Virus record (IMG/VR): IMGVR_UViG_3300001525_000092
Span: 32,001-96,000 of that record
Reading direction: 5' to 3' (one strand)
Length of the DNA stretch: 64,000 bases
DNA from: a virus
Taxonomy: Duplodnaviria; Caudoviricetes
The first letter of the stretch is position 1; every line of letters starts with the position of its first letter. The position numbers and the translations under genes were made by a program. Under the pieces are notes generated by a model. It was not told the DNA's origin. It did no database searches and was given only the letters and a program-made list of their open reading frames with translations. Below, one piece after another: positions 12,853 to 39,634 of the stretch.

Positions 12853-14571
12853 TTATAGTATGGTTGTAGTTATTGTTGCTTCAATTGGCTCTGTCTCTCT
12901 AAGAAGGATACCCATAGAGATTAGCTTCTTCACTAAGTGATCTGTCTTCTCTCCTATAGCATCTGTGTCTATGTTCTTCATTCTAAAGAAGAAGTTGAAG
13001 TGGCTATAGTCTGAAAGTTGCACACCATACAAGTAAGAAGTGTCAAACCATCTTCCTGCTCCTGCATAGATGCCACAATGATTCAGTATAGTTGACTCAT
13101 TCTTCACTCCTATGTCACCCGGCTTCAGATCATCTCCACTTATCATTTCCCAATCCGAGTCAGAGAATATAGTGAAGAAGTCTACACACATGTTAGGTGT
13201 CTCCATTCCTAGAGACTTCTTCATGATGTGCTTGACATATCCAGAGCAGTCTAGTCCATACTCTGGCTTGTCTTTTCCGTGTATCTTGTAGAAAAGACCT
13301 GGTTGCATGCACAAGCAATTGTACATCACTTCCTGTCTCTTGCTAGACAGATTCATCCAGTCATGCTCATACAAGCTTCTTACTTCTTCTTTGTCATATC
13401 CTGTGAAGCACTTTCCTTTGTCTTGTCCAAACTCAAACTCATCAGTGTGATAGATGGCATTCTTTTTCATGTAAGTCTCTATCTTGTCTATGACAATGTC
13501 AAACATGTTGTGCTTTATCTGCTGAGATATTCCTTGGACGCCTGGACTTGAGTTGTACTCTATCACAAAGTCTCCATCAGTGCATGCCATCAAGTCTATT
13601 CCTACCCATCGGCATCCTGAGAGCTTAGCTACCTTGAGTGCTATCTCTTTCTGCTTGTCCGTCATCTGGTACTCTTCTGTCTTAGCACCTAGTGACACAT
13701 TAGAACGGAAGTCACCTGATATCTTGTCTCTTTTCATGCAAGCAAGTATCTCGTAGTTGGCACCATCTACAGAGAATGCATGGACACGAATGTCACCAGT
13801 GTTCTCTTTGTACTCTTGTATGATGAACTCTGCTTCTTTGTCTATAGTGAACATAGCTTGAAGTATTCCTTCTATCTCTTCATGGTTGCAGATGAACACT
13901 CCAATGCCAAGACTGCCATTCAGTATCTTCACAACATACTGTCTGTTCTCTTTCACATCATTGATGTTCTCATTAGCGGTGTATATAGAGTCAAGCATCT
14001 TCCAGAAGCTTTCTCTTGTGTCATGGCACTCAGTGTTCAGATCTTCCATCAATTCTCTGGTGATGAGAACATATCCTGGTTGTGGAATGTTCTCTTGAGC
14101 AAGCAAGTTAGAAGCAAGGAACTTGTCTGATGCCATGATTATCTCATCTATAGTATTGAGCATGAAGAATCCTTCATATTCTAGAGCACGCATCAGACCA
14201 ATGTAGTTCTTCTTGTTGTCATCATTTGCTTGTCCTTGAAACACTATAGTGTCATGGATGTTGCTATGCTTGAGAGAGAAGTGCATGTCCATGATGTCAT
14301 CATCTATAGATATGACATGATTCTTGTAAGTGAAGCGCACTGTTGACTTGTTGAGCCAGACTAAGTTGAGCTTGCGCTTGTGGCAGCATATAGTGAGATA
14401 GTCTTGGTAAGACCAGTCTTCTTCTTTGTCTTTGATAGCTTCATCATAAGTCTTCACCTTCTTGTCTCCAACATAGAAGCATATCACATTCTTAAGCTCT
14501 AGCTTAGTGTCATTCTTAAGCAATGTCATTGCCTCATTGATGTTCTTGTACTCTTTCTCTTTTACTTGCAT
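12853..14571 (-). CDS. RimK-like ATP-grasp ligase fused to a C-terminal NlpC/P60 peptidase domain
   Basis: YVVKILNGSLGIGV, IIQEY, DIRV, DFRSNVSLG and VIEYNSSPG; then GLDCSGYV...LKPGD...NHCGIYAG. Confidence 0.85.
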   Translation of the reverse strand: MQVKEKEYKNINEAMTLLKNDTKLELKNVICFYVGDKKVKTYDEAIKDKEEDWSYQDYLTICCHKRKLNLVWLNKSTVRFTYKNHVISIDDDIMDMHFSLKHSNIHDTIVFQGQANDDNKKNYIGLMRALEYEGFFMLNTIDEIIMASDKFLASNLLAQENIPQPGYVLITRELMEDLNTECHDTRESFWKMLDSIYTANENINDVKENRQYVVKILNGSLGIGVFICNHEEIEGILQAMFTIDKEAEFIIQEYKENTGDIRVHAFSVDGANYEILACMKRDKISGDFRSNVSLGAKTEEYQMTDKQKEIALKVAKLSGCRWVGIDLMACTDGDFVIEYNSSPGVQGISQQIKHNMFDIVIDKIETYMKKNAIYHTDEFEFGQDKGKCFTGYDKEEVRSLYEHDWMNLSSKRQEVMYNCLCMQPGLFYKIHGKDKPEYGLDCSGYVKHIMKKSLGMETPNMCVDFFTIFSDSDWEMISGDDLKPGDIGVKNESTILNHCGIYAGAGRWFDTSYLYGVQLSDYSHFNFFFRMKNIDTDAIGEKTDHLVKKLISMGILLRETEPIEATITTTIL

Positions 14572-15596
14572 AACTCATCAATAGCATTTATAAGTTTCTC
14601 AAAGAACTTGCAGTTAGTCTCTTCTATGTCAGGATCATTGATAGGTGAGCTTGGTCCTGGTGCACCATTTAGCTCTACAATGATAGTCTTTCCATTCTGG
14701 AGTGGAAGCATGTCGACACCGCACCACTCTAGTCCTGATGCTCTAGCAACTTCTAATGCAAGCTTCTCTTGCTCACTAGAAAGTTTGTAGTCATCTTCCA
14801 TGTCACATCCAAGACTTAGATTAGTCCTGAAGTCTTTTCCTTTCTTCCTCATTATAGAAGAAAGTATCTTTTGCTTTCCATTCAACGTCAGAACATGAAC
14901 TCTGATGTCACCATCTTTTATCTCTTGAAAGTCTTGTATCAGTATAGGACAGTTCTCTTTGAGCTTGAACAGGCATTGCAATATAGAGACGATGTTCTTT
15001 CCTCTGCAGCAGAACACACCTTTGCCACCATGGCCACCCAATATCTTGCACACATAATTGAAGTCATCATCTAGCTTTCCGTACAGCGTCTTTAGTTTCT
15101 CATCTAGCTTCTTGTGATCTTCTTTGTCGATATCTGCTGATGTTGATAAGACAAACTTAGGCTGAGGAAACTTATTCTGGTCTAAGAAGCATGCTGTGGC
15201 ATACTTGTCAGAAGAGAGTGCTACTGCTAATGGACAGTTCAATATCAGTATTCCTAAGCTTTGGATAGCTTTCAATAGATTAGACACAACTGGATTAGTA
15301 TATCCACTCCTCATCAGTATGACAGTGTCTTTTCTATCAGATATTGTCAGCTTCACTGTACTGCTGTCTTTTTCTCTACTATATATAGTTACACTCTTCT
15401 CTTCAGTAGAGAAGTCAAGCTTAGTAGGATCAGCATACTCTACTTTGATGTGATCTCTAGACAGCATCTTGATGCTGTTCAAGTAGAGTTCTCCTATCAA
15501 TACTAGCCTCTTCACTTTCTTAAGCTCGGTTGTATGTTCTTGATTCTTGCTCTCAACTAATGTAAGCATGTCATCAAGATTAGTGACATATTTCAT
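14562..15596 (-). CDS. RimK-like ATP-grasp ligase
   Basis: CKILGGHGGKGV, LIQDF, DIRV, DFRTNLSLG, GVDML and VELNGAPG. Confidence 0.85.
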   Translation of the reverse strand: MKYVTNLDDMLTLVESKNQEHTTELKKVKRLVLIGELYLNSIKMLSRDHIKVEYADPTKLDFSTEEKSVTIYSREKDSSTVKLTISDRKDTVILMRSGYTNPVVSNLLKAIQSLGILILNCPLAVALSSDKYATACFLDQNKFPQPKFVLSTSADIDKEDHKKLDEKLKTLYGKLDDDFNYVCKILGGHGGKGVFCCRGKNIVSILQCLFKLKENCPILIQDFQEIKDGDIRVHVLTLNGKQKILSSIMRKKGKDFRTNLSLGCDMEDDYKLSSEQEKLALEVARASGLEWCGVDMLPLQNGKTIIVELNGAPGPSSPINDPDIEETNCKFFEKLINAIDELCK

Positions 15597-16556: not shown

Positions 16557-16811
16557 ATGTATACAAACATCATCGGATTCATCATTGTCGGCATCTTCAT
16601 TGGATGTTGTCTCATGACATTGATCTCTATCTACTCATACAAGAAGAACTGTCCTGATTATGTAGAGACAGATACCGGAATTGTATGGAGGTTGAAGTGC
16701 AAAGCAACTTCTTGTGTTGACAACAAGCCTTGCTATGTCATGGAAAGCACAAAAGATGCACATGTAGAGACAGTAGACTACTTGACATTCAAGAAGAGGT
16801 TCAAAGAATGA
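16557..16811 (+). CDS. Small membrane protein, hypothetical
   Basis: N-terminal TM segment. Confidence 0.55.
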   Translation: MYTNIIGFIIVGIFIGCCLMTLISIYSYKKNCPDYVETDTGIVWRLKCKATSCVDNKPCYVMESTKDAHVETVDYLTFKKRFKE

Positions 16812-16871
16812 ACTTCTTCTTTTATTTATCTATGTTTTATTTAACAAACAATTAAAATCAAGAAAGTATTT

Positions 16872-18017
16872 ATGAGTTGGAAACCAGATTTTGACTACAG
16901 TAACAAGAACATGAACTTTTATAAAGTAGGTTGTAACTTTGATCCTAAGTTGATTGATGTTGCTGTAGAATTGAATGAGAAGTATAAGGGAAAGTCACAG
17001 ATAGTAGAGTTCTTCGGTTCAGATAGGTCTACACAAGATGTCTCTGCACGTCCAGGATGGAGATTGCCGGACATTTCTAAAGAAGAGTTTGCAAGTTATG
17101 TGAAGAAGTTGAAAGAAAACAACATTGGATTCAACTTTACTATGAACTCAATCATTCCATATAGCAATAAAGTAGAAATGGTGAAACATAAGAAGGACAT
17201 TCAAGATCTTGTTAAGTGGCTTGAGTCAATTGGTGTGTACCGTCTTACTATTGCTAATCCAGAGCTTCTTATTATGGTACGTGAAGTATCTAACATAGAA
17301 GTAGAAATGTCTTGTATCACTCACATTGATACTGTGACTCAACTTAAGTACTACCATGAGAACTTTGGAGTGAACAAGTTCTGTAACTCTATTCTTAAGA
17401 ATCGTAACAAGAAGTTCTTAATTAATGCTCAGAAGTATTGTGATGATAATGGATTGGTACTTGAGCTTATGGCAAATGAGTTTTGTGGAGTAGCAGGAGT
17501 AGATAGCAAAGGAACTCATTATGCAACACATTGTGTTTTCAGAGATTCTTGTTATATATGCCATGCTTGCAATAGAACAAAAGAAGATTCTATGCTTGAC
17601 AATAACTATCCAATGGGTTATTGCATGTCTGCACGTTCATCAACTCCAGAAGCATGGCTTCGTATGAGATGGATTCGTCCAGAAGATCAGAAGATCTATC
17701 GAGAGAAGACAGGAGTAAATTACTTTAAGTTGTCTGGACGAACTGGCACAACCGAATATTTGAAATATGTGATGGAAGCATATATGTCAGAAGACTTTGA
17801 CAACAACATCATTTCTCTATGGAAACCATTAAGCTCAATTTATGATGGAAAGACAGAGTTGAAGTCAAAGACTGACATAGATATTCCGAATAAGAAGCTT
17901 GATGGATTCATTGATAAGTGGATGGACGGAAATGGCTGGGAATGTGAGAATGAGCTTTGTGGAACTACTTGTCATTATTGCTTAGATTTTGCTAAAGAAC
18001 ATAATTTATATGAGTAA
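16872..18017 (+). CDS. Peptidase U32-family protein (RlhA/TrhP/UbiUV-like Fe-S hydroxylase)
   Basis: LELMANEFC...HCVFRDSCYICH...YC Cys cluster; FKLSGRT (U32 KIEGR-like); C-terminal CENELCGTTCHYC. Confidence 0.8.
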   Translation: MSWKPDFDYSNKNMNFYKVGCNFDPKLIDVAVELNEKYKGKSQIVEFFGSDRSTQDVSARPGWRLPDISKEEFASYVKKLKENNIGFNFTMNSIIPYSNKVEMVKHKKDIQDLVKWLESIGVYRLTIANPELLIMVREVSNIEVEMSCITHIDTVTQLKYYHENFGVNKFCNSILKNRNKKFLINAQKYCDDNGLVLELMANEFCGVAGVDSKGTHYATHCVFRDSCYICHACNRTKEDSMLDNNYPMGYCMSARSSTPEAWLRMRWIRPEDQKIYREKTGVNYFKLSGRTGTTEYLKYVMEAYMSEDFDNNIISLWKPLSSIYDGKTELKSKTDIDIPNKKLDGFIDKWMDGNGWECENELCGTTCHYCLDFAKEHNLYE

Positions 18018-19107
18018 AGAAACAAAAATCATTGCTGGTCCATGCTCTGCTGAGTCATTGGACCAGTGTCTTTCTACAGCTAAGCAACTTTCAGAGCAAG
18101 GCATTAATGTGTTTAGAGCTGGTGTATGGAAGCCAAGAACAAAACCAGGTGGATTTGAAGGTGTTGGTGAGATTGCATTGAATTGGCTAAGGCAAGTTCG
18201 TAGAGAAACAGGAATGAAAGTTGGATGTGAAGTAGCTAACAAAGAGCAATGTGAACTTGCGTTGATGCATAATCTAGACTATATATGGATAGGCGCAAGA
18301 ACTACAACAGATCCATTTGCGGTTCAAGAGATATCTGACACTATCAAAAAGTTTGTGAATGGCCCAGGTAAGACAATGCATAAGTATGTTGGTAACTTGA
18401 CTGTTCTTGTCAAGAATCCGGTATGTCCTGATTATGACTTGTGGGTAGGTGCTATAGAACGTGTCAAGAACTCCGGTGTCAAGAATGTAGGAGCTATTTT
18501 CAGAGGATTCAAGACATATAATCAATCTAAGTATCGTAATGAGCCTATCTGGGACATTCCATTGAAGCTAATCACTGAATATCCTAACATGGAAGTATAT
18601 TGTGATCCTAGTCATATTTCTGGCAATACAGAGTATCTTCAAGACATATCTAATGCCGCTATAGAGTATGGATTTTCTGGATTGATGATAGAAAGTCATT
18701 GTGATCCAGAGAATGGGTGGACAGATGCTAAGCAACAAGTAAAACCAAGCCAGATACATGAGATAGTCGAGAGACTTCCAAATAATGATGTTCTATGCAG
18801 TGCTACTAATGATGATTTGAAGATGCTTAGTAAACTTAGAGCAGAAGTGACAAGCATTGATAGGACATTGTCATTGCAACTGATTGCAAGAATGAGAGAT
18901 TGCATACAGATAGGTAAGATCAAAGAGAGGATGGGTCAAGAGACTTATCAGAAAGACAGATGGAATCACGTACTGAAGAATGTCAACAAACAATTCAAGG
19001 CATCTAAGCTTTATGATGAATATCCTGATGAGTTTGACTATCTTATTAATGTGATATGGAGCGCAATTCATTCTATGTCATGTAAACTTCAAATTAAGAA
19101 CAAATGA
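18010..19107 (+). CDS. Bifunctional DAHP synthase (type I-beta) / chorismate mutase (AroQ)
   Basis: IAGPCSAES, RAGVWKPRT, WIGART, CDPSH and GLMIESH; C-terminal LRAEV..ID..L..R....IGKIK...R...S...Q; ATG overlaps the U32 stop codon. Confidence 0.92.
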   Translation: MSKETKIIAGPCSAESLDQCLSTAKQLSEQGINVFRAGVWKPRTKPGGFEGVGEIALNWLRQVRRETGMKVGCEVANKEQCELALMHNLDYIWIGARTTTDPFAVQEISDTIKKFVNGPGKTMHKYVGNLTVLVKNPVCPDYDLWVGAIERVKNSGVKNVGAIFRGFKTYNQSKYRNEPIWDIPLKLITEYPNMEVYCDPSHISGNTEYLQDISNAAIEYGFSGLMIESHCDPENGWTDAKQQVKPSQIHEIVERLPNNDVLCSATNDDLKMLSKLRAEVTSIDRTLSLQLIARMRDCIQIGKIKERMGQETYQKDRWNHVLKNVNKQFKASKLYDEYPDEFDYLINVIWSAIHSMSCKLQIKNK

Positions 19108-20228
19108 GAGAAGAATTCAAAAACTTAGCACAATACATTCAGGACAAGAATGTATTGTGTGTCCCAATTATCTCATCAATAAATAGAAAGACTGGTGAGT
19201 ATAAGCTGGATGCGGATGGCAATGTCAATAGAATCATCACTACATTTTGGCATGCTGACACATATAAGAAGCTGACTATTGTGTTGCCTTCTAAGCACAC
19301 ATTAGGAAGTGACTCACTTATATATCAGTGGATCAACATGAAGAGTAGTCCAGAACATGAGATAGAAGTCATTTGGTCCGAGAACTTTGGAATCCACGCA
19401 GGAGAGCAACGCAGCAACTACTTTGTCATCAATAAATTGTTTCATGAGTTGGCAAACTACTTCAATGGAAATTTCATAAATGTGTATATGATAGAATCAC
19501 AAGGATTGCTAGACAAAGCATTTCCTTCTATAGTCACTAAAGACGTGATATTCTGGAACTACACTTGCACTACTAACAAGAAGACAAGGTCATTCTTGAA
19601 TGGCTACAAAGAAGTCAATGAGAGATTTTTCAAGGCGTGTGACAAGACTATAGTAGCTTCACCTGAGCAGGTAGAGTACTTCAATGAAGTTGTTCCTGTA
19701 GAAAAGAACAAGATGATGTACATTCCTACATTCATGGATAGAGACATTCCGTTGTTCAAGTATGCCAAAGACACTGTTCTAGATCAGAAGTTGAAGAGGT
19801 ATAGTAAAGTCTTCAAGATTTTCTACTTGCCATATAGAATGACGGATGAAGGATATCTGATGAATGATGTGATACAGTACATCAATGCTGATCCTAATGA
19901 CTTCAAGATGGTATTGTATGGAGATCCTAACAATAGTGGTTACATGGACACAATCAAAGATAAGTTTGACGGCAATGTGATGTTGAAGAAAGTGTCAACA
20001 TCAAGAAATGTCTACTACACTATTCTTGACTGTGACGCTAACATAACAATACCATATTTTGAGGACATTGCATATATCAATCATGCATCAATCCAAGAGT
20101 TCATAGATGATAGATGCAAGTGTCAGATAGTTCTTGCTAATCATGACACGATTGATCCTTATGGATTGTCAAAGCATGACAATGTAAGATATCTTGCTCC
20201 TTTACATGGACCAGAAAGAGAGAAATAA
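19104..20228 (+). CDS. Putative GT-B fold glycosyltransferase
   Basis: Two Rossmann-like halves: NVLCVPI...ACDKTIVASPEQVEYF...IFYLPYRMTDEG; ATGA overlap with the upstream gene. Confidence 0.5.
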   Translation: MREEFKNLAQYIQDKNVLCVPIISSINRKTGEYKLDADGNVNRIITTFWHADTYKKLTIVLPSKHTLGSDSLIYQWINMKSSPEHEIEVIWSENFGIHAGEQRSNYFVINKLFHELANYFNGNFINVYMIESQGLLDKAFPSIVTKDVIFWNYTCTTNKKTRSFLNGYKEVNERFFKACDKTIVASPEQVEYFNEVVPVEKNKMMYIPTFMDRDIPLFKYAKDTVLDQKLKRYSKVFKIFYLPYRMTDEGYLMNDVIQYINADPNDFKMVLYGDPNNSGYMDTIKDKFDGNVMLKKVSTSRNVYYTILDCDANITIPYFEDIAYINHASIQEFIDDRCKCQIVLANHDTIDPYGLSKHDNVRYLAPLHGPEREK

Positions 20229-20279
20229 AAATCTCTTCTTTCCTATATTCTACACACAAATATATATAATAAGAGAATT

Positions 20280-20396
20280 ATGACATTTAATGTAAATGAA
20301 TTGAAAAATGCTACAATGACAACCGTGCCAGTATATGTATGCCAGACATGTACCGACAACACACATAAATATATTTATGACTATGTGAATGAGTAA
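20280..20396 (+). CDS. Small 38-aa ORF with CxxC (not in ORF track)
   Basis: MTFNVNELKNATMTTVPVYVCQTCTDNTHKYIYDYVNE; ATGAGTAA overlap with the kinase start. Confidence 0.4.
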   Translation: MTFNVNELKNATMTTVPVYVCQTCTDNTHKYIYDYVNE

Positions 20397-20982
20397 GATA
20401 AACATTATATGCATGGATGGCCATGATCGTAGTGGCAAAGATACTATCATGGATTCATTGTCATTTGATGACTATCTAGTATACAAGCAACCAGAGACAG
20501 AAGATCAAGATGTAGACTATAAAGATCCTGAGAAGTTCAAGAACTTCATGGTGAAGTACATCAGGAAAGTTCTAGATGACTTGTACACTATGTCTAAGAT
20601 GAATGGAACAGACAGACCTATAGTGATATCTAGACTTCTTCTTTGTGACAATGTCTTTTCTGACATATATGGTAGAGAGCATGTAGTAGAGAAGTATTTT
20701 GGTAAAGAGATAGAGACTAACTTCAATGTCATCAACTACATCATGCTTTTCAGAGACTATGAAGAGTATGTGAAGAGAGTGGAGATGATAGGAAGTACTA
20801 TTGACTTCACTGAGAAAGAGTTTGATGACATAGTGAGCAACTATAATCATTATAAGTCAGACAAAGACATTGTCAAGTTGATAGATGCAACAGATTCTAA
20901 AGAGAAAGAGTATGCTGACTTTGTGAATGCATTTGAATATTTGACACCACATTATAGATTAGAGCATGATAACACAGTTTGA
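20389..20982 (+). CDS. dNMP kinase (thymidylate-kinase-like P-loop)
   Basis: IICMDGHDRSGKDT P-loop; VISRLLLCDNVF (DR-like motif). Confidence 0.7.
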   Translation: MSKINIICMDGHDRSGKDTIMDSLSFDDYLVYKQPETEDQDVDYKDPEKFKNFMVKYIRKVLDDLYTMSKMNGTDRPIVISRLLLCDNVFSDIYGREHVVEKYFGKEIETNFNVINYIMLFRDYEEYVKRVEMIGSTIDFTEKEFDDIVSNYNHYKSDKDIVKLIDATDSKEKEYADFVNAFEYLTPHYRLEHDNTV

Positions 20983-21580
20983 GAGACAGTTGACAGAAGT
21001 GCAAGGATCACCATACAACCAAGCAGCAGAGATGATGATCCTTCACTACATGGCTATAGGATACAAGTTCAAGATGAACAGAAATCAGATGCTTGATGAC
21101 TACATTGCTAGTCCTAAAGTATTGTTCACAAGTGTAGTACCACAATATCAGTCACCTTATGACGAAGAGGTAATAGAGCTTGCTATGTCACTTGGGTGGA
21201 AGTTTGTATGTTGTGGAAGACTATATACTGAGCTAGAGCAATTTAGCTATGACAGAAAGAGAACTAATTGGGGTTTGTGTTGGAAATGGGACATTGTATG
21301 GCCTCTTGGTATCAAAGACATGATTGTATCTAACAAAGAGAATAATGCCAAGACTGCATTCATCGGATATCGTATGGATGAAGTGATAGACATGAATGTT
21401 GCTGACTATAGCGGCACTTGCATAGATGCTTCTGAGTTCACTAAGCAGTTCTGTGACTATGTGTCAGACAGGTCATTCAACAACTTTGCATTCAGTGAGT
21501 TGTTGCTAGCTATAGTAGAGAAAGATGTGAAAGTCTTCATTGAAGAAAATGTTGAGAAATATTTTGAAAAAATTTCTTAG
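20966..21580 (+). CDS. Hypothetical protein
   Basis: 204-aa ORF overlapping the kinase stop codon. Confidence 0.6.
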   Translation: MITQFERQLTEVQGSPYNQAAEMMILHYMAIGYKFKMNRNQMLDDYIASPKVLFTSVVPQYQSPYDEEVIELAMSLGWKFVCCGRLYTELEQFSYDRKRTNWGLCWKWDIVWPLGIKDMIVSNKENNAKTAFIGYRMDEVIDMNVADYSGTCIDASEFTKQFCDYVSDRSFNNFAFSELLLAIVEKDVKVFIEENVEKYFEKIS

Positions 21581-21816: not shown

Positions 21817-22899
21817 ATGAAAAAGTTTATTTTAAGCATCTTGATGGCTTTTGTAGCCGTCTTTAGTGTGAATGCACAGAATCAGAGTAACTATAGCAGT
21901 AGTTCTAAGCTTACTGACAATGTGAGTGTGACCGTTCAAGGTGGTGTTCTGACATCATTTGACAACTTCTACTCTGGTCATACTGCTATGGCTCCTATTG
22001 CATTGGTAGGAATTGACAAGTATGTCACTCCGGTGTTTGGAATTGGTATCGAAGGTCGTACATTGATTGGTACTGGACATGGTTCATACAACACTTATAC
22101 CGCATTTGACTATGTGAATGTGTCAGGTTACTTGAAAGGTAACTTGGGTAATGCATTCAATTATGTAGGTGCACGACATGCTTTTGAGCCAGTAGTATAC
22201 ACAGGTATTGGATGGGGTCATGGAACCGCTTATATGCATCCTAACTGGATGACTTACCGTGCCGGTATGGAGCTTAATTACAACTTCGGAAATGCAAAGA
22301 ATTGGGCAGTAGTTGTGAATCCATCAGTTGTATGGAATGACATTGACAATGGCAAGCTTATCAAGAAGAATGGTAGCTTTGAGGTCACAGCAGGTGTAGT
22401 ATATCACTTCAATACATCTAATGGCACTAGTGCATTCAAGAAGGCTAAGCTTTATGACCAGAATGAGATTGATGAGCTCAATGGAAAGATCAATGGATTG
22501 CAGAAGGACTTAGACAATGCTAATGCTACTATCGAGTTGCTGAAGAGCAAGCCTGTTCCACAGACAAACACTGTAGAGACAGTGAAGACAGTTTATCCTA
22601 AGGTACAGTTCAAGCAAGGTTCTGCTAAGATCACTGAGACATCTATGGCTAACATCTATGACATTGCAGATGCATTGAAAGATGTAGATGGCACTATCAA
22701 AGTGACCGGCTATGCTTCAACTGAAGGTAGCACTTCATACAACAAGACATTGTCACTGAAGCGTGCAGAAGCAGTGAAGAATGCACTCGTCAAGGCCGGA
22801 GTTGATGCTTCAAAGATTGAAGTAATTGGTCTTGGTGCTACTGACAAGTTCAATCCTGATGATCTAAGCACTAATCGAGTTGTTACTACAGAGAAGTAA
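21817..22899 (+). CDS. ompA: OmpA-family outer membrane protein (Bacteroidales type)
   Basis: Signal peptide, beta-barrel region, coiled linker; VQFKQGSAKI, VTGYASTEG..YNKTLSLKRAEAV and NRVV. Confidence 0.9.
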   Translation: MKKFILSILMAFVAVFSVNAQNQSNYSSSSKLTDNVSVTVQGGVLTSFDNFYSGHTAMAPIALVGIDKYVTPVFGIGIEGRTLIGTGHGSYNTYTAFDYVNVSGYLKGNLGNAFNYVGARHAFEPVVYTGIGWGHGTAYMHPNWMTYRAGMELNYNFGNAKNWAVVVNPSVVWNDIDNGKLIKKNGSFEVTAGVVYHFNTSNGTSAFKKAKLYDQNEIDELNGKINGLQKDLDNANATIELLKSKPVPQTNTVETVKTVYPKVQFKQGSAKITETSMANIYDIADALKDVDGTIKVTGYASTEGSTSYNKTLSLKRAEAVKNALVKAGVDASKIEVIGLGATDKFNPDDLSTNRVVTTEK

Positions 22900-22928: not shown

Positions 22929-22960
22929 AATGGACATTGCTTGTGAAAGTGATGTCCATT
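22929..22960 (+). terminator. Hairpin downstream of ompA
   Basis: AATGGACATTGCTT-GTGA-AAGTGATGTCCATT. Confidence 0.55.
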
Positions 22961-24652: not shown

Positions 24653-25091
24653 ATGAAATCATTAACAGTTTTTTTTGAATGAGTCAATAATAGATGAATC
24701 AAACTTTTCTTCTAAAGGAATATTCAATTTCAGAATGGAAAGATACAATGATAAGAAATATGTTCCTTTGACACTAGAAGAATTCATCGACAAAGTAAGA
24801 AAAGAGAAAGACATCCAGATAGGATATCAAGTTTCTGATAAGAACAAATATGTTGTACTAAGAGAAACTGGTTCTGGATCAGAAGTGAACTCTAACTGGA
24901 AAGTGACAACACTAGACGACTTTGTGTCTAGTGACATAGCAAAGAAATGTTCTTCTTATAAGATGTATTCTTATACTGGTGGATATGCTTTAGGCATTGT
25001 GTTTGATGCTAGTGTCAATCATGGAAAAGGATTCATAGAATATTCTCCTAGCGATGTAAGAGTAAAAGAAGTAGAAGACTTGAAATTATAA
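24653..25091 (+). pseudogene. Putative internal head protein interrupted by a frameshift in a T8 tract
   Basis: ATG at 24653 reads MKSLTVFFE*; T7 instead of T8 (24669-24676) gives MKSLTVFLNESIIDES, fused to ORF 24675-25091. Confidence 0.65.
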
Positions 25092-25099
25092 AATATAGA

Positions 25100-25131
25100 A
25101 AAAAAGACATGTACTAGTACATGTCTTTTTT
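25100..25131. terminator. Bidirectional terminator, perfect 32-bp palindrome
   Basis: A6-GACATGTACTAGTACATGTC-T6 between convergent genes. Confidence 0.85.
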
Positions 25132-25137
25132 GTATGT

Positions 25138-25605
25138 TTAATATAGTTGTATGTGCTTCTCATATTCGGAATCTTTTCTCATAGTAGACGAGAAGTTGCT
25201 ATATTTGCCAACTGTCTTGATGACAACATTGCATTTCTTAAACTTTGAATCTGACCAAGACACGAATCCAACAACTGTCAGAGGATGCTCTCTGTTCTTT
25301 CTAGCATCTGTTATGACAAAAGTGTACTGCTTCTTGTCTTTGTAGCTTGCAACTTTCAATGCTCCGTCTTTCAACAACTGCTTTATGTCCTTCTTAGCAC
25401 CCATTACAGCATTCACAATCTCATCATTAGTCACCTTTCTCTCAGACTTTCTGTCTTCAACATGGTCACCTATCATGATGCTTATGGGAGTGAACTTGTA
25501 TGATCCGTCCGGCTGTCTGAGTGGCCATATCTTCTTGTTAGCCTCAAGAATCAAGTCTAAGCTAATTCCAAGATTCTCATTGATATATTGTTTAAAGTTT
25601 AGCAT
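25138..25605 (-). CDS. Putative internal head protein with a RelE/BECR-like RNase pattern
   Basis: MLNFKQYINEN N-terminus; GDHVEDRKSERKVT...VVIKTV. Confidence 0.45.
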   Translation of the reverse strand: MLNFKQYINENLGISLDLILEANKKIWPLRQPDGSYKFTPISIMIGDHVEDRKSERKVTNDEIVNAVMGAKKDIKQLLKDGALKVASYKDKKQYTFVITDARKNREHPLTVVGFVSWSDSKFKKCNVVIKTVGKYSNFSSTMRKDSEYEKHIQLY

Positions 25606-25670
25606 GTTTTCTTTGAAATTTTCTTAGTTGTTACTATATTAGATATGTAAAAATAAAACGAATAATAATT

Positions 25671-25952
25671 ATGAAAATGAATACAACAACTATAAAGTCA
25701 CAAGTAGAGAACATTGCAAAGAAGCTCAACATCAAGTTAGTAAACTTGAATGTAGAACTGAATCCTTCTTTTGACTATGGCAAAGACACTACTAATGACA
25801 TCTACTCAGTGAGTGCTAAAGTAGAGAATCCAGAAGCAATCTCTCAAGACAAGATGAAGTCATTCATGTCTACAGTAGAAAGTGAATGCTATGAAGACTG
25901 GAAATATGAGACTTACATTGATATAGAGAACTTTGACATTGAAGAAGACTAA
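25671..25952 (+). CDS. Hypothetical protein
   Basis: Follows the promoter at 25612-25640. Confidence 0.6.
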   Translation: MKMNTTTIKSQVENIAKKLNIKLVNLNVELNPSFDYGKDTTNDIYSVSAKVENPEAISQDKMKSFMSTVESECYEDWKYETYIDIENFDIEED

Positions 25953-29367: not shown

Positions 29368-30557
29368 GAACAGACATTCAACTTTCTATAGATAGACTAA
29401 ACAATATATTTGAAGATGGAATAGAAAAGTATGTTGATCCTATCACTAACTTGACATATGACTATTATGTTCCTTCTACTAATCTTTACATTGACATGAG
29501 ATATGGGATAGAATGGCAAGGACATTCTTTTGATTCTTATAATCGTATTGATATAGAATTGGCGGAGTGGCTTAAAGAGAAGGGTACGGATAATGCACCA
29601 TATAAATGGGTGACAGAAGGATCTGCTAAAGACAATGTTGCTAAGATGTACAATAGAAGCTACATCATATTCTGGTCTATAGAAGAGTTGAATGCATTCT
29701 TTGACATGTCAATGAAGCTAGAATATAGCAATGATGACATGAGAATAGAGTATGAGAAGATACTTAAGCATGATGGAAAGCTCTCATTGTATAGTGGACA
29801 CAACAAGATAGTGAAGCAATTTCAGCAAGAGAACTTGTACCAACCAGAACAAGCATTGTTTGATGACTATGCTAAGAGATACAAGCTATGTAGGAATCGA
29901 GACAAGTATCTTGGTCTCAAGATATGGGACTTGAATGCTAATGACATGATAAATGGATTCAAGATAGCAGGAATGCATTATGGATTTAGCATGTTCAGTC
30001 CTATGATAGGTAAGTGGTTTGTATGGCATTTCAACTTGCAGGACAGTGTGTGTTATGATCCAACTGGAGGATGGGGTCATCGCTTGCTAGGAATAGCACC
30101 ATTTGTGAAGAAGTACATATACAATGACTTGAGTCCTCATACAGTAGAAAGTTGCAAGAGGATAGCACAATGGGCAAATCTAGACAATGTAGAGTATCAC
30201 AATGAGGATGCAACAACATTCATGCCAGATGCAGACTATGACTTCATGTTCACATGTCCTCCTTATTATGCTGATGACAAGAACACTGAAGAGTATGAGT
30301 GTGATGGATTCACTTCATTGGAACAATTCAATGACTTCTTGCTAGGAATGTATGATAAGTTCTTGAAGAAAGAATCTTGCAAGTACTTTGGATTAGTGAT
30401 ACGAGAGGACATGGTACCAGACATCATGAGAAAGGACATCAAAGAATCATACTGTGTAGCAAGAAACTCTAACTCACACTATGCTAGAACATCTAAGCTT
30501 CAAAGAAAGAAGTTCTTAGAATACTTATACATATTCAAGAAAGATGGAATTAAGTGA
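29364..30557 (+). CDS. DNA amino-methyltransferase (N6A/N4C type) with a degenerate N-terminal nuclease-like domain
   Basis: Motif I CYDPTGGWGHR, motif IV FTCPPYY; N-terminal YDYYVPSTNLYID aligns with the nuclease domain of the KYGVDN paralogs. Confidence 0.75.
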   Translation: MRTDIQLSIDRLNNIFEDGIEKYVDPITNLTYDYYVPSTNLYIDMRYGIEWQGHSFDSYNRIDIELAEWLKEKGTDNAPYKWVTEGSAKDNVAKMYNRSYIIFWSIEELNAFFDMSMKLEYSNDDMRIEYEKILKHDGKLSLYSGHNKIVKQFQQENLYQPEQALFDDYAKRYKLCRNRDKYLGLKIWDLNANDMINGFKIAGMHYGFSMFSPMIGKWFVWHFNLQDSVCYDPTGGWGHRLLGIAPFVKKYIYNDLSPHTVESCKRIAQWANLDNVEYHNEDATTFMPDADYDFMFTCPPYYADDKNTEEYECDGFTSLEQFNDFLLGMYDKFLKKESCKYFGLVIREDMVPDIMRKDIKESYCVARNSNSHYARTSKLQRKKFLEYLYIFKKDGIK

Positions 30558-31620
30558 TGAAGTGAACAATATATACCTTAAGTATGTTGATTCAAGAAAT
30601 AGAATAATTCCGAAGAAAGTCACACACATTACAGGAGAAGAAATAGAATGTCTTAGAAAATATTTAGTTAATTTGCCCATATCATATACTCCAGTGACAT
30701 TATTGCAACATATCAAAAATAAAGTATATGAAATAGGCAAATGCAAAAGATGTGGCAAACCTACAAAATGGCTAAAAAATCATTATCAAGAATATTGTTG
30801 CTTGCTATGCATGCAAAAATCAATATACGTGAAAGAAAATAGAATTAAGACAAATCTACACAAATACGGTGTCACCAACAATCTAAGAATAGATGATGTA
30901 GTCAAAAAAGCAACATTCAATTCTCACACAAAAGAAGCAATATACAAACAACAACAAACTAGATTAGAAAAATATGGCTACATAACTCCATTCCAAAATG
31001 AAGAAAGTATGTCATTAGCAATTAAAAGATCTCATACATCTAAAGCAGAAAAGAAAAGAAAAAATACTTTTTATAAGAAATATGGAGAAAATAGAAAAGA
31101 AATAGTAGAAAAATACAAAAATACTATGCTGGCTAAATATGGTGTAGAAAATGCTGGACAATTAAAGAAAACAATAGATTCTCATACAAAAGAATCAATT
31201 CTAAAAGGAATAGAAACTAAAAGAAAAAATCATACATTCAACACTTCTAAGCCAGAAGAAGAACTATACTTATACATAAAGTCTAAGTTTCCTAATGTGA
31301 AGAGACAGTACAAAGACAAAGAACGATATCCATATTACTGCGACTTCTACATTCCTGAGCTAGACTACTTTATAGAACTACAAGGTTACTACACTCATGG
31401 GAAAGAACCTTATAATCCTGCTTCTATCAAGCATCAAGCCTTAGTGCAAAGATACAGAGAAAGGTATGGTTCAGATTGCCAAGCAATCACTATATGGACA
31501 ATCAAAGATGTAGAGAAGAGAAACTGTGCTAAAGAGCATAATCTGAACTTCAGAGAAGTATGGTGCTTAGAAGAAGGAAAGAAATTTGTTGATGAATTAT
31601 TTGAAAAATCAATTAGCTAA
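30544..31620 (+). CDS. Putative homing endonuclease, paralog 2
   Basis: CKRCG..CCLLC, KYGV(T/E)N repeats, CDFYIPELDYFIELQG. Confidence 0.75.
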   Translation: MELSDEVNNIYLKYVDSRNRIIPKKVTHITGEEIECLRKYLVNLPISYTPVTLLQHIKNKVYEIGKCKRCGKPTKWLKNHYQEYCCLLCMQKSIYVKENRIKTNLHKYGVTNNLRIDDVVKKATFNSHTKEAIYKQQQTRLEKYGYITPFQNEESMSLAIKRSHTSKAEKKRKNTFYKKYGENRKEIVEKYKNTMLAKYGVENAGQLKKTIDSHTKESILKGIETKRKNHTFNTSKPEEELYLYIKSKFPNVKRQYKDKERYPYYCDFYIPELDYFIELQGYYTHGKEPYNPASIKHQALVQRYRERYGSDCQAITIWTIKDVEKRNCAKEHNLNFREVWCLEEGKKFVDELFEKSIS

Positions 31621-36758: not shown

Positions 36759-36952
36759 TGATAGTAGAAATTAACTTGGTTGCGTTGATTGCTCTTTGTG
36801 GATTAGTAGGACTAGGATTTGGTCTTGCTATGTCATACAAGAAAGAATCAGACATGTGGAAAGACATAGTCATGAACAAAAGAAAGTGATGAGACAATTT
36901 TTAACTATGACTGAGTTGCTCAGTCAGCTAAATACATAGATCTTTGAAATAT

Positions 36953-39355
36953 ATGAAAGTACGTAAGAGAGATGGTAAAGTCCAGGGCTTTGACTTGAAC
37001 AAGCCAATCAGAGCACTTGAGAAAGTGTACAAGAATGGAGTGAGAGAAGAAGTTCCAGATGGACTGGAGATGAAGTTTACAGAAGCCATCAATGCATGGT
37101 TGTCAACAATGAAAGAAGATGTTGTTGACATTGAGACTATCCAAGACTTCTTGAGAGACTTTCTCATGTCTGAAGGAGAGAGCAAAGCTGCAGAGCAGTT
37201 CATCTTGTACAGAGAAGAGAGGTCTAACTATCGAGAGTCAAACACTAAGCTAGCTAAGAACATTGCAACAAAGCTTTATGCTAAGAATGTTGTCAATCAG
37301 AATGCTAACTTAGATGAGAATAGCTTTAGTGGACGCATTGGTGAAGCAGGAGCAGTTGTATGCAAAGACTTTGCATTGAAGAACAACATGTCTAAGATGG
37401 CAAGAAAGAATCATGAAGACAACATGATTTATCAACACGACCTCGACAAATATGCTAGTGGGATGCATAATTGTCTTACTGATCCGGTTGATGTTCTTCT
37501 AGAGCATGGAATAGCGTTGAAGCAATGTGACATTCGGTCAGCTAATTCATTGAACACTGCATTTCAGTTGCTAGCAGTCAACTTCCAAGTACAGTCACTA
37601 GAACAATTTGGCGGAATATCCGCATCACATCTTGACTGGACTATGGTGCCATATTTCAGAAAGAGCTTCTTCAAGCATTACAACAACTGGTGTGATGGAA
37701 TTCCGATGATGAAGTGGGCTAAGCCTAGCATAGACAAAGACAAGATAAAGCATGCACCAGTGAATGATTGTCAATATGTTGGATATGGATTATTAAAGCC
37801 ATTGAAGAAGATGATATGGAAGAGAGCATGGAACTCAACTATCAAAGAGTTGAATCAATCTGTTGAAGCGACTTTCCATAATCTCAATAGTCTCCAATCT
37901 CGCAGCGGTGCACAATTGCCATTCTCAAGCATCAACTATGGAACTTGCTTCCTTCCGGAAGGCAGAGCAATCATAAGAGCATTGATAGAAGGATCTATGA
38001 AAGGGACAGGTAAGAACCACCATACTGCTATCTTCCCATGTTGCATATTCCAGTACAGCAAAGACATACATGGAGACAAGAATCATCCTGGTCCTAACTA
38101 TGACTTGTTCAGGCTAGCGTGCAAGTGCACTGCAGAAAGGATATATCCAAACTATGCGAATGTTGATTGGTCTACTAACTTGAAAGGAAATGAGTTTGAT
38201 AGAGAACAAAAGAAGAAAGCACTAGACATGCTAGAGACATTCAGCTCACATGATTATGCTGCATTTGCTAATTGGTTGTATGAGCATCCTGACTATGAAG
38301 ACTATCTTTCATTAGATGGAATTTACGACAATAAGACAGATTGCTGGACAATCTATGTGAGACCTGCAAGTCAGTTCACAAGATACGAAGTCATGTCAAC
38401 TATGGGTTGTCGTACTTATAATGGTTATGACATCAATGCAGATGCTGAGTATTTCTTTGACATGTTCAAGAAGATAGCAGAGACTGGAAAAGTTCAAGAC
38501 AACTGGCTTCTCTCTGCTAATCAGAAAGATGGTAGAGGAAACATCTGTCCGGTGACTATCATCATGCCTACACTTGCTATGATGGCAAAGGAGTCTGGTA
38601 GCAAAGATGCAGTAGAGACATTCATGAAACTGCTTGACAAGAAGATACATGAGGCAAGAGAGATGCTTCTAGAGAGATTCACATTGATATGCAGTCAGAA
38701 TCCAAAGTCTGCACCATTCATGTGGACAAACAACACTATGGTTGGTTACATTCTTGGAGAAGGTCCAGTATCAGCAATGAAGCATGGAACTTTAGCTATT
38801 GGTCAGATTGGTCTAGCGGAGACATTGCAGATATTGATTGGGTGTGACCATACAGAACAGAGAGGTCTAGAGTTAGCAAAGAGAATTGAGAAGCTTTACA
38901 ATGATAGATGTGCGGAGTTCAAGAAGAACGACAAGCTCAACTTTGGTGTCTATTATACTCCAGCCGAAGGTCTTTGTCATACTTCAATGAAGAAGTTCAA
39001 AGCAAAGTATGGTACTATTCCTCATGTGTCTGATCATGAATTCTTCACTAACTCTATGCATGTCCCTGTATATGACAATGTAGATTGCTTCAAGAAGATT
39101 GACATTGAGAGTCAATTGACTGGATATAGCAATGCTGGTTGCATCACTTATGTAGAGCTTCCTGCTAATGCTATCAACAACATTGATGCTATAGAAGAGT
39201 TAGTTGTCCACATGATGCAAAAGAACATCCCGTATGCAGCAATCAACTTCAAGCTGAATAGCTGCAATTCTTGTGGATATCATGGAATTGATGTGTTTGA
39301 TGAGTGTCCTAGATGTGGAAGTCATGACATCGAGCATCTGGCGAGAGTAACTGGT
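36953..39355 (+). CDS. nrdD: Anaerobic (class III) ribonucleotide reductase, exon 1
   Basis: N-terminal ATP cone, HDLD, NC, MGCRT, YYTPAEG and CxxC..CxxC; ends at RVTG. Confidence 0.95.
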
Positions 39356-39634
39356 TAGTAAAATAGCCGTTTTGGATAGTGATGTCCATCATTATTACTG
39401 GTCAAAATCGGTGGAGGACAATGATATATTGTCATTGCTTGATACCGAGATAAACTTATTAGTAAAGATAATAAGTCATTGTAACGCGTAGGAATTGAAC
39501 CTCAATAAAGAGAATAAAATATTCCCAAGAGTGACCGGCTCTAATATATTATCTTATATTAGATGAATATGTACGCTGAGCTCCTGGTGACAGAGAGAAG
39601 AACTTGATAAAAAACTAGTTCGATAACAAAACTG
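39356..39634 (+). ncRNA. Group I self-splicing intron (279 nt, no internal ORF) in nrdD
   Basis: 5' exon ends in U with P1 GGUUA/UAGCC (U-G wobble); P3 CUGGUCA/UGACCGG; P4 UCGGU/ACCGA; P7 GCGUA/UACGC; terminal G; splicing restores RVTG|YLS. Confidence 0.9.

Follow-up and report, generated by a model that had tools for sequence, protein, structure and literature searches.

Glycosylated 5-hydroxycytosine is found in the DNA of the phages RB69, HY126, Serratia 92A1, Acinetobacter DLP3 and Rhizobium RL38J1 (Lee et al. 2026, PMC13326640). The RB69-type systems hydroxylate the base with a ThyA-like, flavin-/O2-dependent 5hodCMP synthase. The gene cluster of the T4-like phages with 5-arabinosyl-hydroxycytosine, a product that has been experimentally established, also encodes a member of the U32 family, RB69 gp50, which is listed only as a 'sugar or heterocycle reductase' (PMC13326640, Table 1).

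The U32 'peptidases' are a large family that includes UbiU/UbiV, RlhA and TrhP of E. coli (PMC6747719, PMC10990095). The C5 atoms of cytidine and uridine are hydroxylated by RlhA and TrhP. Prephenate is the established oxygen donor for UbiU/V and has been proposed as the donor for the U32 family generally, although in vitro hydroxylation by any U32 protein has not yet been shown (PMC10990095). This chemistry has never been reconstituted in vitro, in part because the substrates known so far are either folded RNAs or precursors of quinones in the membrane.

Here we describe an operon in a 64,000-nucleotide stretch of phage DNA (the window), part of a 148-kb contig, that combines a U32 gene with genes for prephenate synthesis, a glycosyltransferase and a nucleotide kinase. 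The best explanation for this operon is that a large phage uses it as a module for hypermodifying DNA bases, with its chemistry, substrate and product being inferred. We estimate a probability of roughly 0.6 that it encodes a prephenate-fed, O2-independent pyrimidine C5 hydroxylase, probably producing 5-hydroxy-dCMP, followed by glycosylation. This estimate is based on comparative evidence, without biochemistry: computational tools establish what the genes are, how their products fold, which catalytic residues are retained, and their synteny and co-occurrence, while the chemical steps, without exception, as well as substrate and product are inferred from them. No description of an O2-free hydroxylation-glycosylation route of this kind was found in the searchable literature.

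The phage is uncultured and its source is a metagenome. It is a jumbo gut phage of the ~285-kb class that infects anaerobic hosts, probably Bacteroidales. The gene for the anaerobic reductase NrdD within the window supports the proposed hydroxylase. On the other side, the contig is only about 52% complete.

Organization of the operon

All the ORFs given for the region 16872–21580 in the preliminary description are present, on the + strand (Table 1). The coupling of the U32, DAHPS-CM and glycosyltransferase genes through overlapping stop and start codons, also described there, is borne out by reading the sequence. The end of the U32 gene (...tat gag taa) overlaps the start of the next gene (atg agt aaa), an overlap of ATGAGTAA, and the DAHPS-CM and glycosyltransferase genes share the overlap aaATGAga at 19104–19107. 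This arrangement is not due to chance, as the gene order and the overlapping stops and starts recur in relatives. In L010, L012-14, L019 and L021, DAHPS-CM is likewise located between U32 and the glycosyltransferase, with the same stop/start overlaps, and the DAHPS-CM proteins are 61–83% identical. The hairpin just 5′ of the U32 gene is a probable boundary of the transcription unit.

Table 1. Features of the operon and its flanks (positions in the window)
Feature	Position	Strand	Support
Terminator-like hairpin	16791..16821	+	13-bp stem then T-rich tail; consensus match only
U32-family Fe-S protein, 381 aa	16872..18017	+	PF01136 30 bits; phrog_5757 378 bits
DAHP synthase (type I-beta) domain of DAHPS-CM	18010..18792	+	PF00793 112.5 bits
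AroQ-type chorismate mutase domain, C-terminal part of DAHPS-CM	18793..19107	+	PF01817 38.7 bits
GT-B glycosyltransferase, 374 aa	19104..20228	+	AF2 pLDDT 90.7, pTM 0.89
38-aa ORF, CQTC	20280..20396	+	Read from sequence; overlaps kinase start by ATGAGTAA
P-loop nucleotide kinase, 197 aa	20389..20982	+	P-loop GHDRSGKDT; thymidylate-kinase-like
HAD-fold-like paralog, 204 aa	20966..21580	+	27% identical (E 2e-6) to L022-cluster HAD phosphatase
OmpA-domain protein	21817..22899	+	PF00691 76.7 bits

The U32 protein

The U32 protein scores above the Pfam cut-off (22.4 bits) for Peptidase_U32, but the match spans only 62 residues, which weakens our case. Its PHROGs match, phrog_5757, is annotated as 'peptidase'. 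The AF2 model has a pLDDT of 95.5, and its best match in the PDB, found with Foldseek, is the U32 protein Mk0906 (5d88). The TIM-barrel fold is shared with UbiU/UbiV, RlhA and TrhP, and the protein has conserved cysteines, of which three align with Fe-S ligands. The protein is 47–50% identical to the U32 proteins of 222 T4-like phages, including RB69 gp50, and this likeness to a gene of the 5-arabinosyl-hydroxycytosine cluster is in favor of the proposed role.

Three cysteines, Cys221, Cys227 and Cys251, are aligned to the Fe-S ligands Cys169, Cys176 and Cys192 of RlhA. Their spacing is CX5CX23C, compared to the canonical CX6CX15CX3/4C, and the fourth canonical cysteine is absent in the alignment to RlhA, so the cluster ligands of the phage protein can only be inferred. 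In an alignment of 50 family members, Cys205 and Cys251 are invariant and Cys227 is kept in at least 90%; Cys205 is a candidate for a possible fourth ligand. A second group of four cysteines near the C terminus (C358-X4-C363-X3-C367-X2-C370) is also kept in at least 90% of these sequences. With this extra CX4CX3CX2C motif and scores of only about 30 bits, the phage proteins form a divergent, distinct subfamily compared to RlhA and TrhP.

A profile of the phage family scores TrhP (32.0 bits) and RlhA (31.2 bits) above UbiU (16.4 bits) and UbiV (5.1 bits). The two better-scoring proteins are both tied to pyrimidine C5 hydroxylation, in favor of the assignment proposed here. Like the E. coli proteins, the phage U32 is genomically linked to prephenate synthesis. 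Unlike them, it is virus-encoded and its proposed substrate is a deoxynucleotide or DNA, and unlike the UbiU-UbiV pair it is a single gene. The protein is a candidate prephenate-dependent, O2-independent pyrimidine C5 hydroxylase, with the activity, substrate and prephenate dependence all inferred. It is a drawback that the pyrimidine-hydroxylating U32 members characterized so far use RNA rather than nucleotides or DNA.

Two other kinds of substrate can be considered. The first is the DNA polymer, with U32 hydroxylating cytosine or another base in the phage DNA after replication, as RlhA and TrhP do on their polynucleotides (PMC10990095), the glycosyltransferase then acting on the product and the kinase having a separate role. 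A U32 with 36% identity has, in a bacterial island, Mrr-like, Eco57I-like and nucleoside deoxyribosyltransferase-like neighbors that suggest action on DNA, and the lack of a dCTPase (see below) would also agree with a polymer substrate. However, a Tmk- or dNK-like kinase accompanies U32 in at least three phage lineages, the presence of a dCMP deaminase and of a dUTPase/DCD-like gene suggests that the nucleotide pool is being manipulated, and the parallel ThyA-like enzyme of the T4-like systems acts on dCMP (PMC13326640). We consider hydroxylation of the polymer to be unlikely.

The second is RNA, with U32 and chorismate mutase forming ho5U or ho5C in tRNA or rRNA of the phage or its host, or else a sugar or other small molecule; the pair would then lie next to the glycosyltransferase and kinase genes by coincidence. 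RNA and quinones are the substrates of the U32 functions known so far, the guess of Lee et al. for RB69 gp50 allows for a sugar, and no direct data link U32 to DNA. Yet the U32/CM pair stays with the glycosyltransferase and kinase, whether sugar-activation genes are absent, as in the window, or present, and it is also found within a T4-like 5hoC cluster. Moreover, the window has no tRNA genes, and complete relatives with glycosylation genes have no alternative candidate for the hydroxylase. This possibility is given little weight here.

The DAHPS-CM fusion

The DAHPS-CM ORF (18010–19107) encodes 365 residues, counted from the ATG, with Pfam matches to DAHP_synth_1 and CM_2. Among the NCBIfam models, those for DAHPS give 163 and 149 bits and the one for KDO8P synthase 56 bits; the DAHPS scores fall under NCBI's own cut-offs. 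The metal and PEP ligands of DAHP synthase (Cys12, Lys41-Pro-Arg-Thr44, His202, Glu228 and Asp239) are invariant among 33 phage and Bacteroidales homologs. In the chorismate mutase domain, Arg277, Arg294, Lys305, Ser357 and Gln361 (Arg11, Arg28, Lys39, Ser84 and Gln88 of EcCM) are invariant, and Arg317 (EcCM Arg51) is kept in at least 90% of the sequences. The position of EcCM Glu52 is occupied by Trp in the window protein and by Tyr in the Bacteroidales homologs.

The nearest cellular homologs are the type I-beta DAHPS/CM type II proteins of Bacteroidales, which agrees with the proposed setting. They are about 45% identical along their entire length, have the domains in the same order, and share the metal and PEP ligands and the CM residues, including Tyr/Trp at EcCM 52. 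In comparison, the phage genes overlap the U32 and glycosyltransferase genes, and the phage copies diverge from each other far more than those of the bacterial clade.

This host-type appearance, and the PHROGs classification of phage DAHP synthases as 'moron, auxiliary metabolic gene', would be expected if DAHPS-CM were an ordinary auxiliary gene raising the aromatic amino-acid supply for phage protein synthesis, unconnected to U32. That explanation does not account for the overlap with both the U32 and glycosyltransferase genes, nor for relatives without DAHPS in which CM alone is retained in the same place. In the jumbo phages L004-L009, the separate CM encoded after U32 is 50% identical to the CM domain of the window protein. 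The more distant L022 has the array AroB, U32, DAHPS-CM, GT, Tmk-like, SIS, NTase, HAD, AroK, AroQ, AroA, AroC and AroE, which is the whole shikimate pathway around the module, ending at prephenate; no prephenate dehydratase or dehydrogenase is present in the 21 kb of L022 seen. Finally, more than one type of DAHPS is associated with the same U32 family. Two genes from its U32, L025 has a DAHPS that is type I-alpha-like and lacks a CM domain, and homologs of this DAHPS are found in 213 isolate-phage records, whose host-genus distribution is nearly that of the 222 U32 records. A role in amino-acid supply alone therefore appears highly improbable.

The supply of prephenate to U32, in contrast, gains support because relatives lacking the DAHPS domain keep CM, because L022 encodes the full shikimate pathway around the module, and because the O2-dependent ThyA-like hydroxylase is absent from the complete relatives.

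The glycosyltransferase and the kinase

The ORF at 19104 had been described as GT-B-like, and a GT-B fold was indeed found from the AF2 model and its structural matches. The matches in the PDB are LmbT (8il0/8ixp), sucrose-phosphate synthase (6kih) and MshA (3c4q); 6kih, 3c4q and 8ixp are the templates given for 5hoC glycosyltransferases (PMC13326640, Table 1). The top matches in BFVD are H9NC58 (unnamed) and proteins of Acinetobacter phage KARL-1 and Serratia phage Muldoon, with RB69 ORF047c at rank 6. The KARL-1 and Muldoon proteins are uncharacterized. A weak tblastn match, in a small database, was obtained to Klebsiella F48 gp098 (21% identity, E 4.5e-6). The protein thus resembles the first-sugar transferases RB69 gp46:47 and DLP3 gp79. 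The match set, with RB69 ORF047c and the templates of the 5hoC first-sugar transferases, is in favor of the proposed route. The protein is a candidate first-sugar transferase on a hydroxylated DNA base, with its activity and acceptor being inferred.

The kinase has no Pfam match itself. Its L022 ortholog, 32% identical, is at the cut-off for Thymidylate_kin (27 bits), and hhalign gives probabilities of 86–88% between the window protein and the Tmk-like genes found in the F48 and 92A1 clusters. A profile search of the PDB produced only weak Tmk matches. The likeness of the kinase to Tmk is weak, a point against our assignment.

Conservation of the module and absent genes

U32 is accompanied by DAHPS-CM, or at least by CM, in all the related phages examined, so the co-occurrence test set by the preliminary description was passed. 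The CM is either alone or fused to DAHP synthase. It directly follows U32 in two unrelated groups, L004-L009 (55 bits) and the T4-like phages Klebsiella F48 and Serratia 92A1 (mini CM, about 40 bits; cut-off 27). U32 and kinase genes do occur together in T4-like phages with arabinosyl-hydroxycytosine, as the preliminary description had suggested. On the other hand, RB69 gp49 is not recognizable as a chorismate mutase, which is unfavorable to our scheme.

The phage differs from the RB69/DLP3-type systems in the inserted DAHPS-CM fusion, the anaerobe host and the jumbo rather than T4-like genome, with unknown DNA chemistry, and also in the genes that are missing. The absence of a thymidylate-synthase-like gene from the window, noted earlier, extends further: no match to the ThyA family (PF00303) was found in the 148-kb contig or in any of five related records, of which two are complete (DTR; 283 and 294 kb). 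These complete relatives retain AfhE-like nucleotidyltransferase, HAD phosphatase and GT genes, which need a hydroxyl acceptor, in support of another hydroxylase. A ThyX gene is located on the contig outside the window, and a role for it in base modification is not formally excluded, which must be held against the U32 assignment. The same is true of the dCTPase: none had been seen in the window, and no MazG-type or otherwise recognizable dCTPase is present in the contig. The contig also has no sugar-phosphate isomerase, AfhE-like kinase/nucleotidyltransferase or AfhF-like phosphatase for sugar activation, again a difficulty; it has only the HAD-like paralog without the DxD motif. NDP-sugar supply genes are present in L004-L009, L019, L021 and L022.

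The oxygen lifestyle of the hosts fits the proposal. Among isolate phages, those of facultative anaerobes have U32 alongside the ThyA-like hydroxylase. Homologs of the RB69-type 5hodCMP synthase are found in 57 Acinetobacter and 20 Rhizobium phage records, with U32 in at most 3 of either, and the AbTZA1 cluster is missing exactly the U32 and CM genes. However, only a small number of independent phage lineages underlie this contrast between aerobic and anaerobic hosts, which counts against our reading. Where phage and host are strictly anaerobic, U32 using virus-made prephenate may be the sole hydroxylase that forms 5-hydroxy-deoxycytidylate (or another 5-hydroxypyrimidine) for glycosylated DNA; the odds on this stronger claim appear even to us.

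Proposed pathway

In the pathway that we propose, the phage DAHP synthase would drive carbon into the host shikimate pathway, and the fused chorismate mutase would convert chorismate to prephenate. With prephenate as the oxygen donor, the U32 Fe-S protein would add a hydroxyl group to C5 of a pyrimidine nucleotide, with dCMP as the most likely substrate and 5-hydroxy-dCMP as its product, and would replace the flavin-/O2-dependent ThyA-like synthase of the RB69-type systems. The Tmk-like kinase may help phosphorylate the modified nucleotide for incorporation, and the GT-B enzyme would glycosylate the 5-hydroxyl group in DNA, shielding it from host nucleases. The interpretation in the preliminary description is supported, on comparative grounds only: all the in silico refutation tests that were run came out in its favor.

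If this is correct, the U32 family would gain its first substrate that is a deoxynucleotide or DNA. It would also be the first time that a virus is found to carry the shikimate pathway, in part or (in L022) in full, purely as an oxygen-donor supply. Phage DAHP synthase, chorismate mutase and shikimate genes would be recast as suppliers of a cosubstrate rather than as amino-acid metabolism. It would explain 5-hydroxycytosine-based DNA armor in the anoxic gut, where the flavin-/O2-dependent synthase cannot work, and give a function to a gene that is still unassigned in over 200 sequenced T4-like phages, some being candidates for phage therapy. A phage U32 that acts on a soluble nucleotide would also offer the field a simple assay.

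Remaining ORFs

The last ORF of the operon, earlier described as an unknown gene, has no match in Pfam, PHROG or Atlas, but can now be related to the HAD fold through its alignment with the L022 protein. There, TS/TD and a deletion take the place of SDCDG, and GY that of GDS. Judging by its sequence, the protein is a HAD-like paralog without the DxD nucleophile motif, its catalytic motif being missing, and its role is unknown.

The OmpA-domain gene is not shown to be a member of the system. It is the conserved neighbor 3′ of the module in all relatives, and a terminator-like hairpin is located near it, at 22929–22960.

For the small ORF before the kinase, the CxxC motif noted earlier is not conserved, but an ORF of 29–39 residues is kept at this position in relatives. 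Its function is unknown, and it is possibly just a coupling or leader ORF.

Organization of the U32 operon

The contig that carries the U32 operon is an IMG/VR virus sequence of 148,148 bp, ~52% complete by the CheckV estimate. Phage genes in the window encode the NrdD anaerobic ribonucleotide reductase, SbcCD, an endolysin, SSB, and homing endonucleases. The ORFs of the operon claimed in the preliminary description are all recovered by ORF calling on the + strand (Table), and both stop/start overlaps that it reported, ATGAGTAA and ATGA, are found in the sequence. One terminator-like hairpin is located upstream of U32 and another is located 3′ of the downstream OmpA-domain gene.

Table. Features of the operon, its contig and related records. 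Positions are those of the window unless a record is named; G000:C1 denotes positions outside the window on the same contig.
Feature	Position	Strand	Length (aa)	Basis
RimK-like ATP-grasp gene pair	12853-15596	-		
U32-family protein	16872-18017	+	381	Pfam, 30 bits; phrog_5757, 378 bits
DAHP-synthase/chorismate-mutase fusion	18010-19107	+	365	112.5 and 38.7 bits
GT-B ORF	19104-20228	+	374	ORF call; fold model
AT-rich motif	20229-20279			
Small ORF	20280-20396	+	38	ORF call
P-loop protein (kinase)	20389-20982	+	197	ORF call
HAD-like ORF	20966-21580	+	204	ORF call
OmpA-domain gene	21817-22899	+		
HNH or homing endonuclease	30544-31620			
NrdD ORF	36944-39358			Phage NrdD profiles
Homing endonuclease gene downstream of NrdD	39808-40830			
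ThyX-type thymidylate synthase	G000:C1:about 24900-25800	-		
T4-type DNA polymerase, two ORFs	G000:C1:845-2113 and 125427-126968			
Shikimate array	L022:1669-12892			
Island with U32 homolog	L023:253-13636			
Gene row with U32	L024:3699-10944			

The AT-rich motif (TATATATAA-like) lies ahead of the small ORF and the kinase gene, and a similar motif is found upstream of the kinase gene in three phage relatives (L004, L005, L008). The motif is a possible phage promoter within the operon. A role for the small ORF as a CxxC redox or zinc protein was rejected, as the CxxC is not conserved.

The U32 protein and its homologs

The AF2 model of the U32 protein has a pLDDT of 95.5, with 5d88 as the best match in the PDB. 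A fold search was required for this match, as a PDB search with the U32 sequence alone gave nothing useful. In the alignment to RlhA, for which the Fe-S cysteine motif was taken from PMC6747719, Cys221, Cys227 and Cys251 align with the Fe-S ligands Cys169, Cys176 and Cys192 of RlhA, and the fourth canonical cysteine of the motif is not present in the window protein. Among 50 family representatives, Cys205 and Cys251 are invariant, and 90% or more retain Cys227 and the CX4CX3CX2C group at the C terminus. With the family profile, TrhP and RlhA reach nearly the same score (about 32 bits each), and UbiU/V score lower. The target of U32 may instead be RNA or a small molecule, in place of the nucleotide target preferred here.

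A tblastn search finds U32 homologs in 222 isolate-phage records, every one below 60% identity. The best 40 of these, together with the host genera of the remainder, indicate phages of the T4-like type (~47–50% identity) with hosts in Enterobacterales and Shewanella. In all three clusters inspected (Klebsiella phage F48, Serratia phage 92A1 and RB69), the gene is placed between DNA polymerase and uvsX, and its neighbors encode an arabinose-5-phosphate isomerase, a nucleotidyltransferase-kinase, a HAD phosphatase, a Tmk-like kinase, a ThyA homolog and a glycosyltransferase. Arabinosylated 5-hydroxycytosine is the experimentally shown product of the RB69-type cluster, in which the ThyA homolog acts as a 5-hydroxy-dCMP synthase that depends on flavin and O2 (PMC13326640). 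The U32 protein of RB69, gp50 (best match 5d88), is entered in that paper only as a ‘sugar or heterocycle reductase’, and prephenate, chorismate, shikimate, DAHP and peptidase are nowhere mentioned. No proposed role was found in the literature searched on U32, prephenate or chorismate mutase with phage.

Two more distant contexts were observed. In record L023 (Logan SRR13282556 contig), a U32 homolog with 36% identity is located in an apparent bacterial defence or modification island, next to a Mrr-like nuclease, a helicase, a CYTH protein, a nucleoside 2-deoxyribosyltransferase-like protein and a ResIII-Eco57I protein. This island may represent a cellular DNA-modification use of the U32 subfamily. 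Record L024 (JGI 3300041077, an 85-kb contig) is a different phage type, with a PolIII-alpha polymerase. Its gene row encodes UDP-glucose dehydrogenase, an epimerase, an unknown 374-aa protein, U32 (29% identity), a dNK-like kinase, an unknown 409-aa protein, UDG and dCMP deaminase, and no chorismate mutase was recognised in it.

Association of U32 with DAHP synthase and chorismate mutase

All metal and PEP ligands of the DAHP synthase (DAHPS) and the AroQ catalytic residues of the chorismate mutase (CM) are conserved in the fusion, as judged from 33 homologs. The position of Glu52 in E. coli CM is occupied by Trp in the window protein and Tyr in Bacteroidales. The closest cellular homologs are bifunctional enzymes of Bacteroides and Paludibacteraceae (~45% identity), which suggests, from sequence alone, a Bacteroidales host. 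A KDO8P-synthase-like sugar enzyme that feeds glycosylation was considered for the DAHPS domain and rejected, based on the KPRT motif, the scores of DAHPS models (149–163 bits, vs 56 for KDO8P synthase) and the similarity to Bacteroidales DAHPS-CM over the whole protein.

A scan of viral contigs for exact DAHPS-CM peptide words gave no match, and the relatives were instead identified by way of GT and U32. The order U32, DAHPS-CM, GT, with the same fusion, is found in the closer relatives L010, L012-14, L019 and L021. Six jumbo-phage relatives that show synteny (L004-L009, 195–294 kb contigs) lack DAHPS. Their U32 gene is directly followed by a stand-alone CM of roughly 100 aa (55 bits), with 50% identity to the CM domain of the window fusion. 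An apparent DAHPS remnant in L007 and L009, from a tblastn extension to residue 242, is an artefact of an alternative frame over the 3′ end of U32. The ‘hypothetical’ small ORF after U32 in F48 and 92A1 is also a chorismate mutase (CM_2, about 40 bits, cut-off 27), and tblastn finds 51 records with T4-like CM homologs. The claim for T4-like phages rests on these, because RB69 gp49 is detected as a CM by neither Pfam nor BLAST.

DAHPS-CM may alternatively be a plain amino-acid AMG, rather than the prephenate supply for U32. The more distant records L020 and L022, with 65% identity in U32, belong to a related phage, as RimK-like and SSB homologs are shared. The array in L022 (ENA ERZ28633460 scaffold_16) encodes AroB, U32, DAHPS-CM, GT, a Tmk-like kinase, a SIS-like protein, a nucleotidyltransferase, a HAD phosphatase, AroK, AroQ, AroA, AroC and AroE. 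By these assignments, all seven steps of the shikimate pathway and chorismate mutase surround the module, and this is the strongest comparative result. No prephenate dehydratase or dehydrogenase is present in the 21 kb of L022 covered. A Fer4_12 protein comes after the array.

A DAHPS without a CM domain, type I-alpha-like, is located two genes from U32 in record L025. Its homologs occur in 213 isolate-phage records, with a host-genus distribution nearly that of the U32 records. The U32 family is thereby associated with DAHPS of more than one type.

Oxygen-dependent hydroxylase and nucleotide-pool genes

Neither the 148-kb contig nor any of five records from relatives has a match to PF00303 (ThyA family). 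Two of the five (283 and 294 kb) are complete and have direct terminal repeats. Relatives without this match still carry AfhE-like, KdsC-like HAD and second GT genes, which implies that a sugar is placed on a hydroxyl acceptor. ThyX and dCMP deaminase are present, a dUTPase/DCD-like gene is present in the complete relatives, and MazG is absent. The ThyX gene lies outside the window, is found in all relatives as well, and is unlinked to the U32 operon.

Acinetobacter and Rhizobium are strict aerobes. The RB69-type synthase has homologs in 57 phage records for Acinetobacter and 20 for Rhizobium, with U32 in at most 3 of either. From the cluster of Acinetobacter phage AbTZA1, precisely the genes for U32 and CM are missing. 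Phages whose hosts are facultative anaerobes have both U32 and the ThyA-like enzyme. This host-lifestyle contrast between U32 and the RB69-type synthase rests on few independent lineages. E. coli retains UbiIHF as well as UbiUV for ubiquinone (PMC10990095), and by analogy the ThyA-like hydroxylase and the putative U32 hydroxylase of these phages parallel this pair.

Glycosyltransferase, kinase and proposed mechanism

The 374-aa ORF is confidently predicted to be a GT-B enzyme from its model. Its best viral model matches are an unnamed protein and uncharacterised proteins of Acinetobacter phage KARL-1 and Serratia phage Muldoon, with RB69 ORF047c at rank 6. The 197-aa kinase on its own is weakly Tmk-like, and its ortholog in L022 reaches the Pfam cut-off for Tmk. 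The 204-aa ORF encodes a HAD-like paralog from which the DxD motif has been lost, and it had no usable match in the Atlas search.

The most economical reading remains that of the preliminary description, with a phage prephenate supply, a U32 hydroxylase and glycosylation. Prephenate made by the phage would feed the U32 hydroxylase, which would take the place of the ThyA-like enzyme that requires O2. The hydroxylated product, most probably 5-hydroxy-dCMP, would then be phosphorylated, incorporated and glycosylated. DNA may instead be hydroxylated at the polymer level, and neither this nor the other two rivals is excluded by experiment. To the reading with a hydroxylated nucleotide, the present analysis adds the fusion embedded in the operon, the relatives that lost DAHPS and retained CM, the full shikimate pathway of L022, the complete genomes without ThyA, and the host-lifestyle contrast.

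Other features of the contig

The two RimK-like ATP-grasp genes are neighbors, and the larger one has a C-terminal NlpC/P60 peptidase domain fused to it. The pair is divergent from the U32 operon and adjoins it in all relatives, including the distant L022. Phage NrdD profiles match the NrdD ORF in two blocks (residues 1–417 and 486–804), and a homing endonuclease gene is located directly downstream. Another gene in the window, for an HNH or homing endonuclease, has a homolog inserted in the modification cluster of L004. Different parts of the T4-type DNA polymerase are matched by two widely separated ORFs outside the window, and the polymerase gene of the contig may be split.
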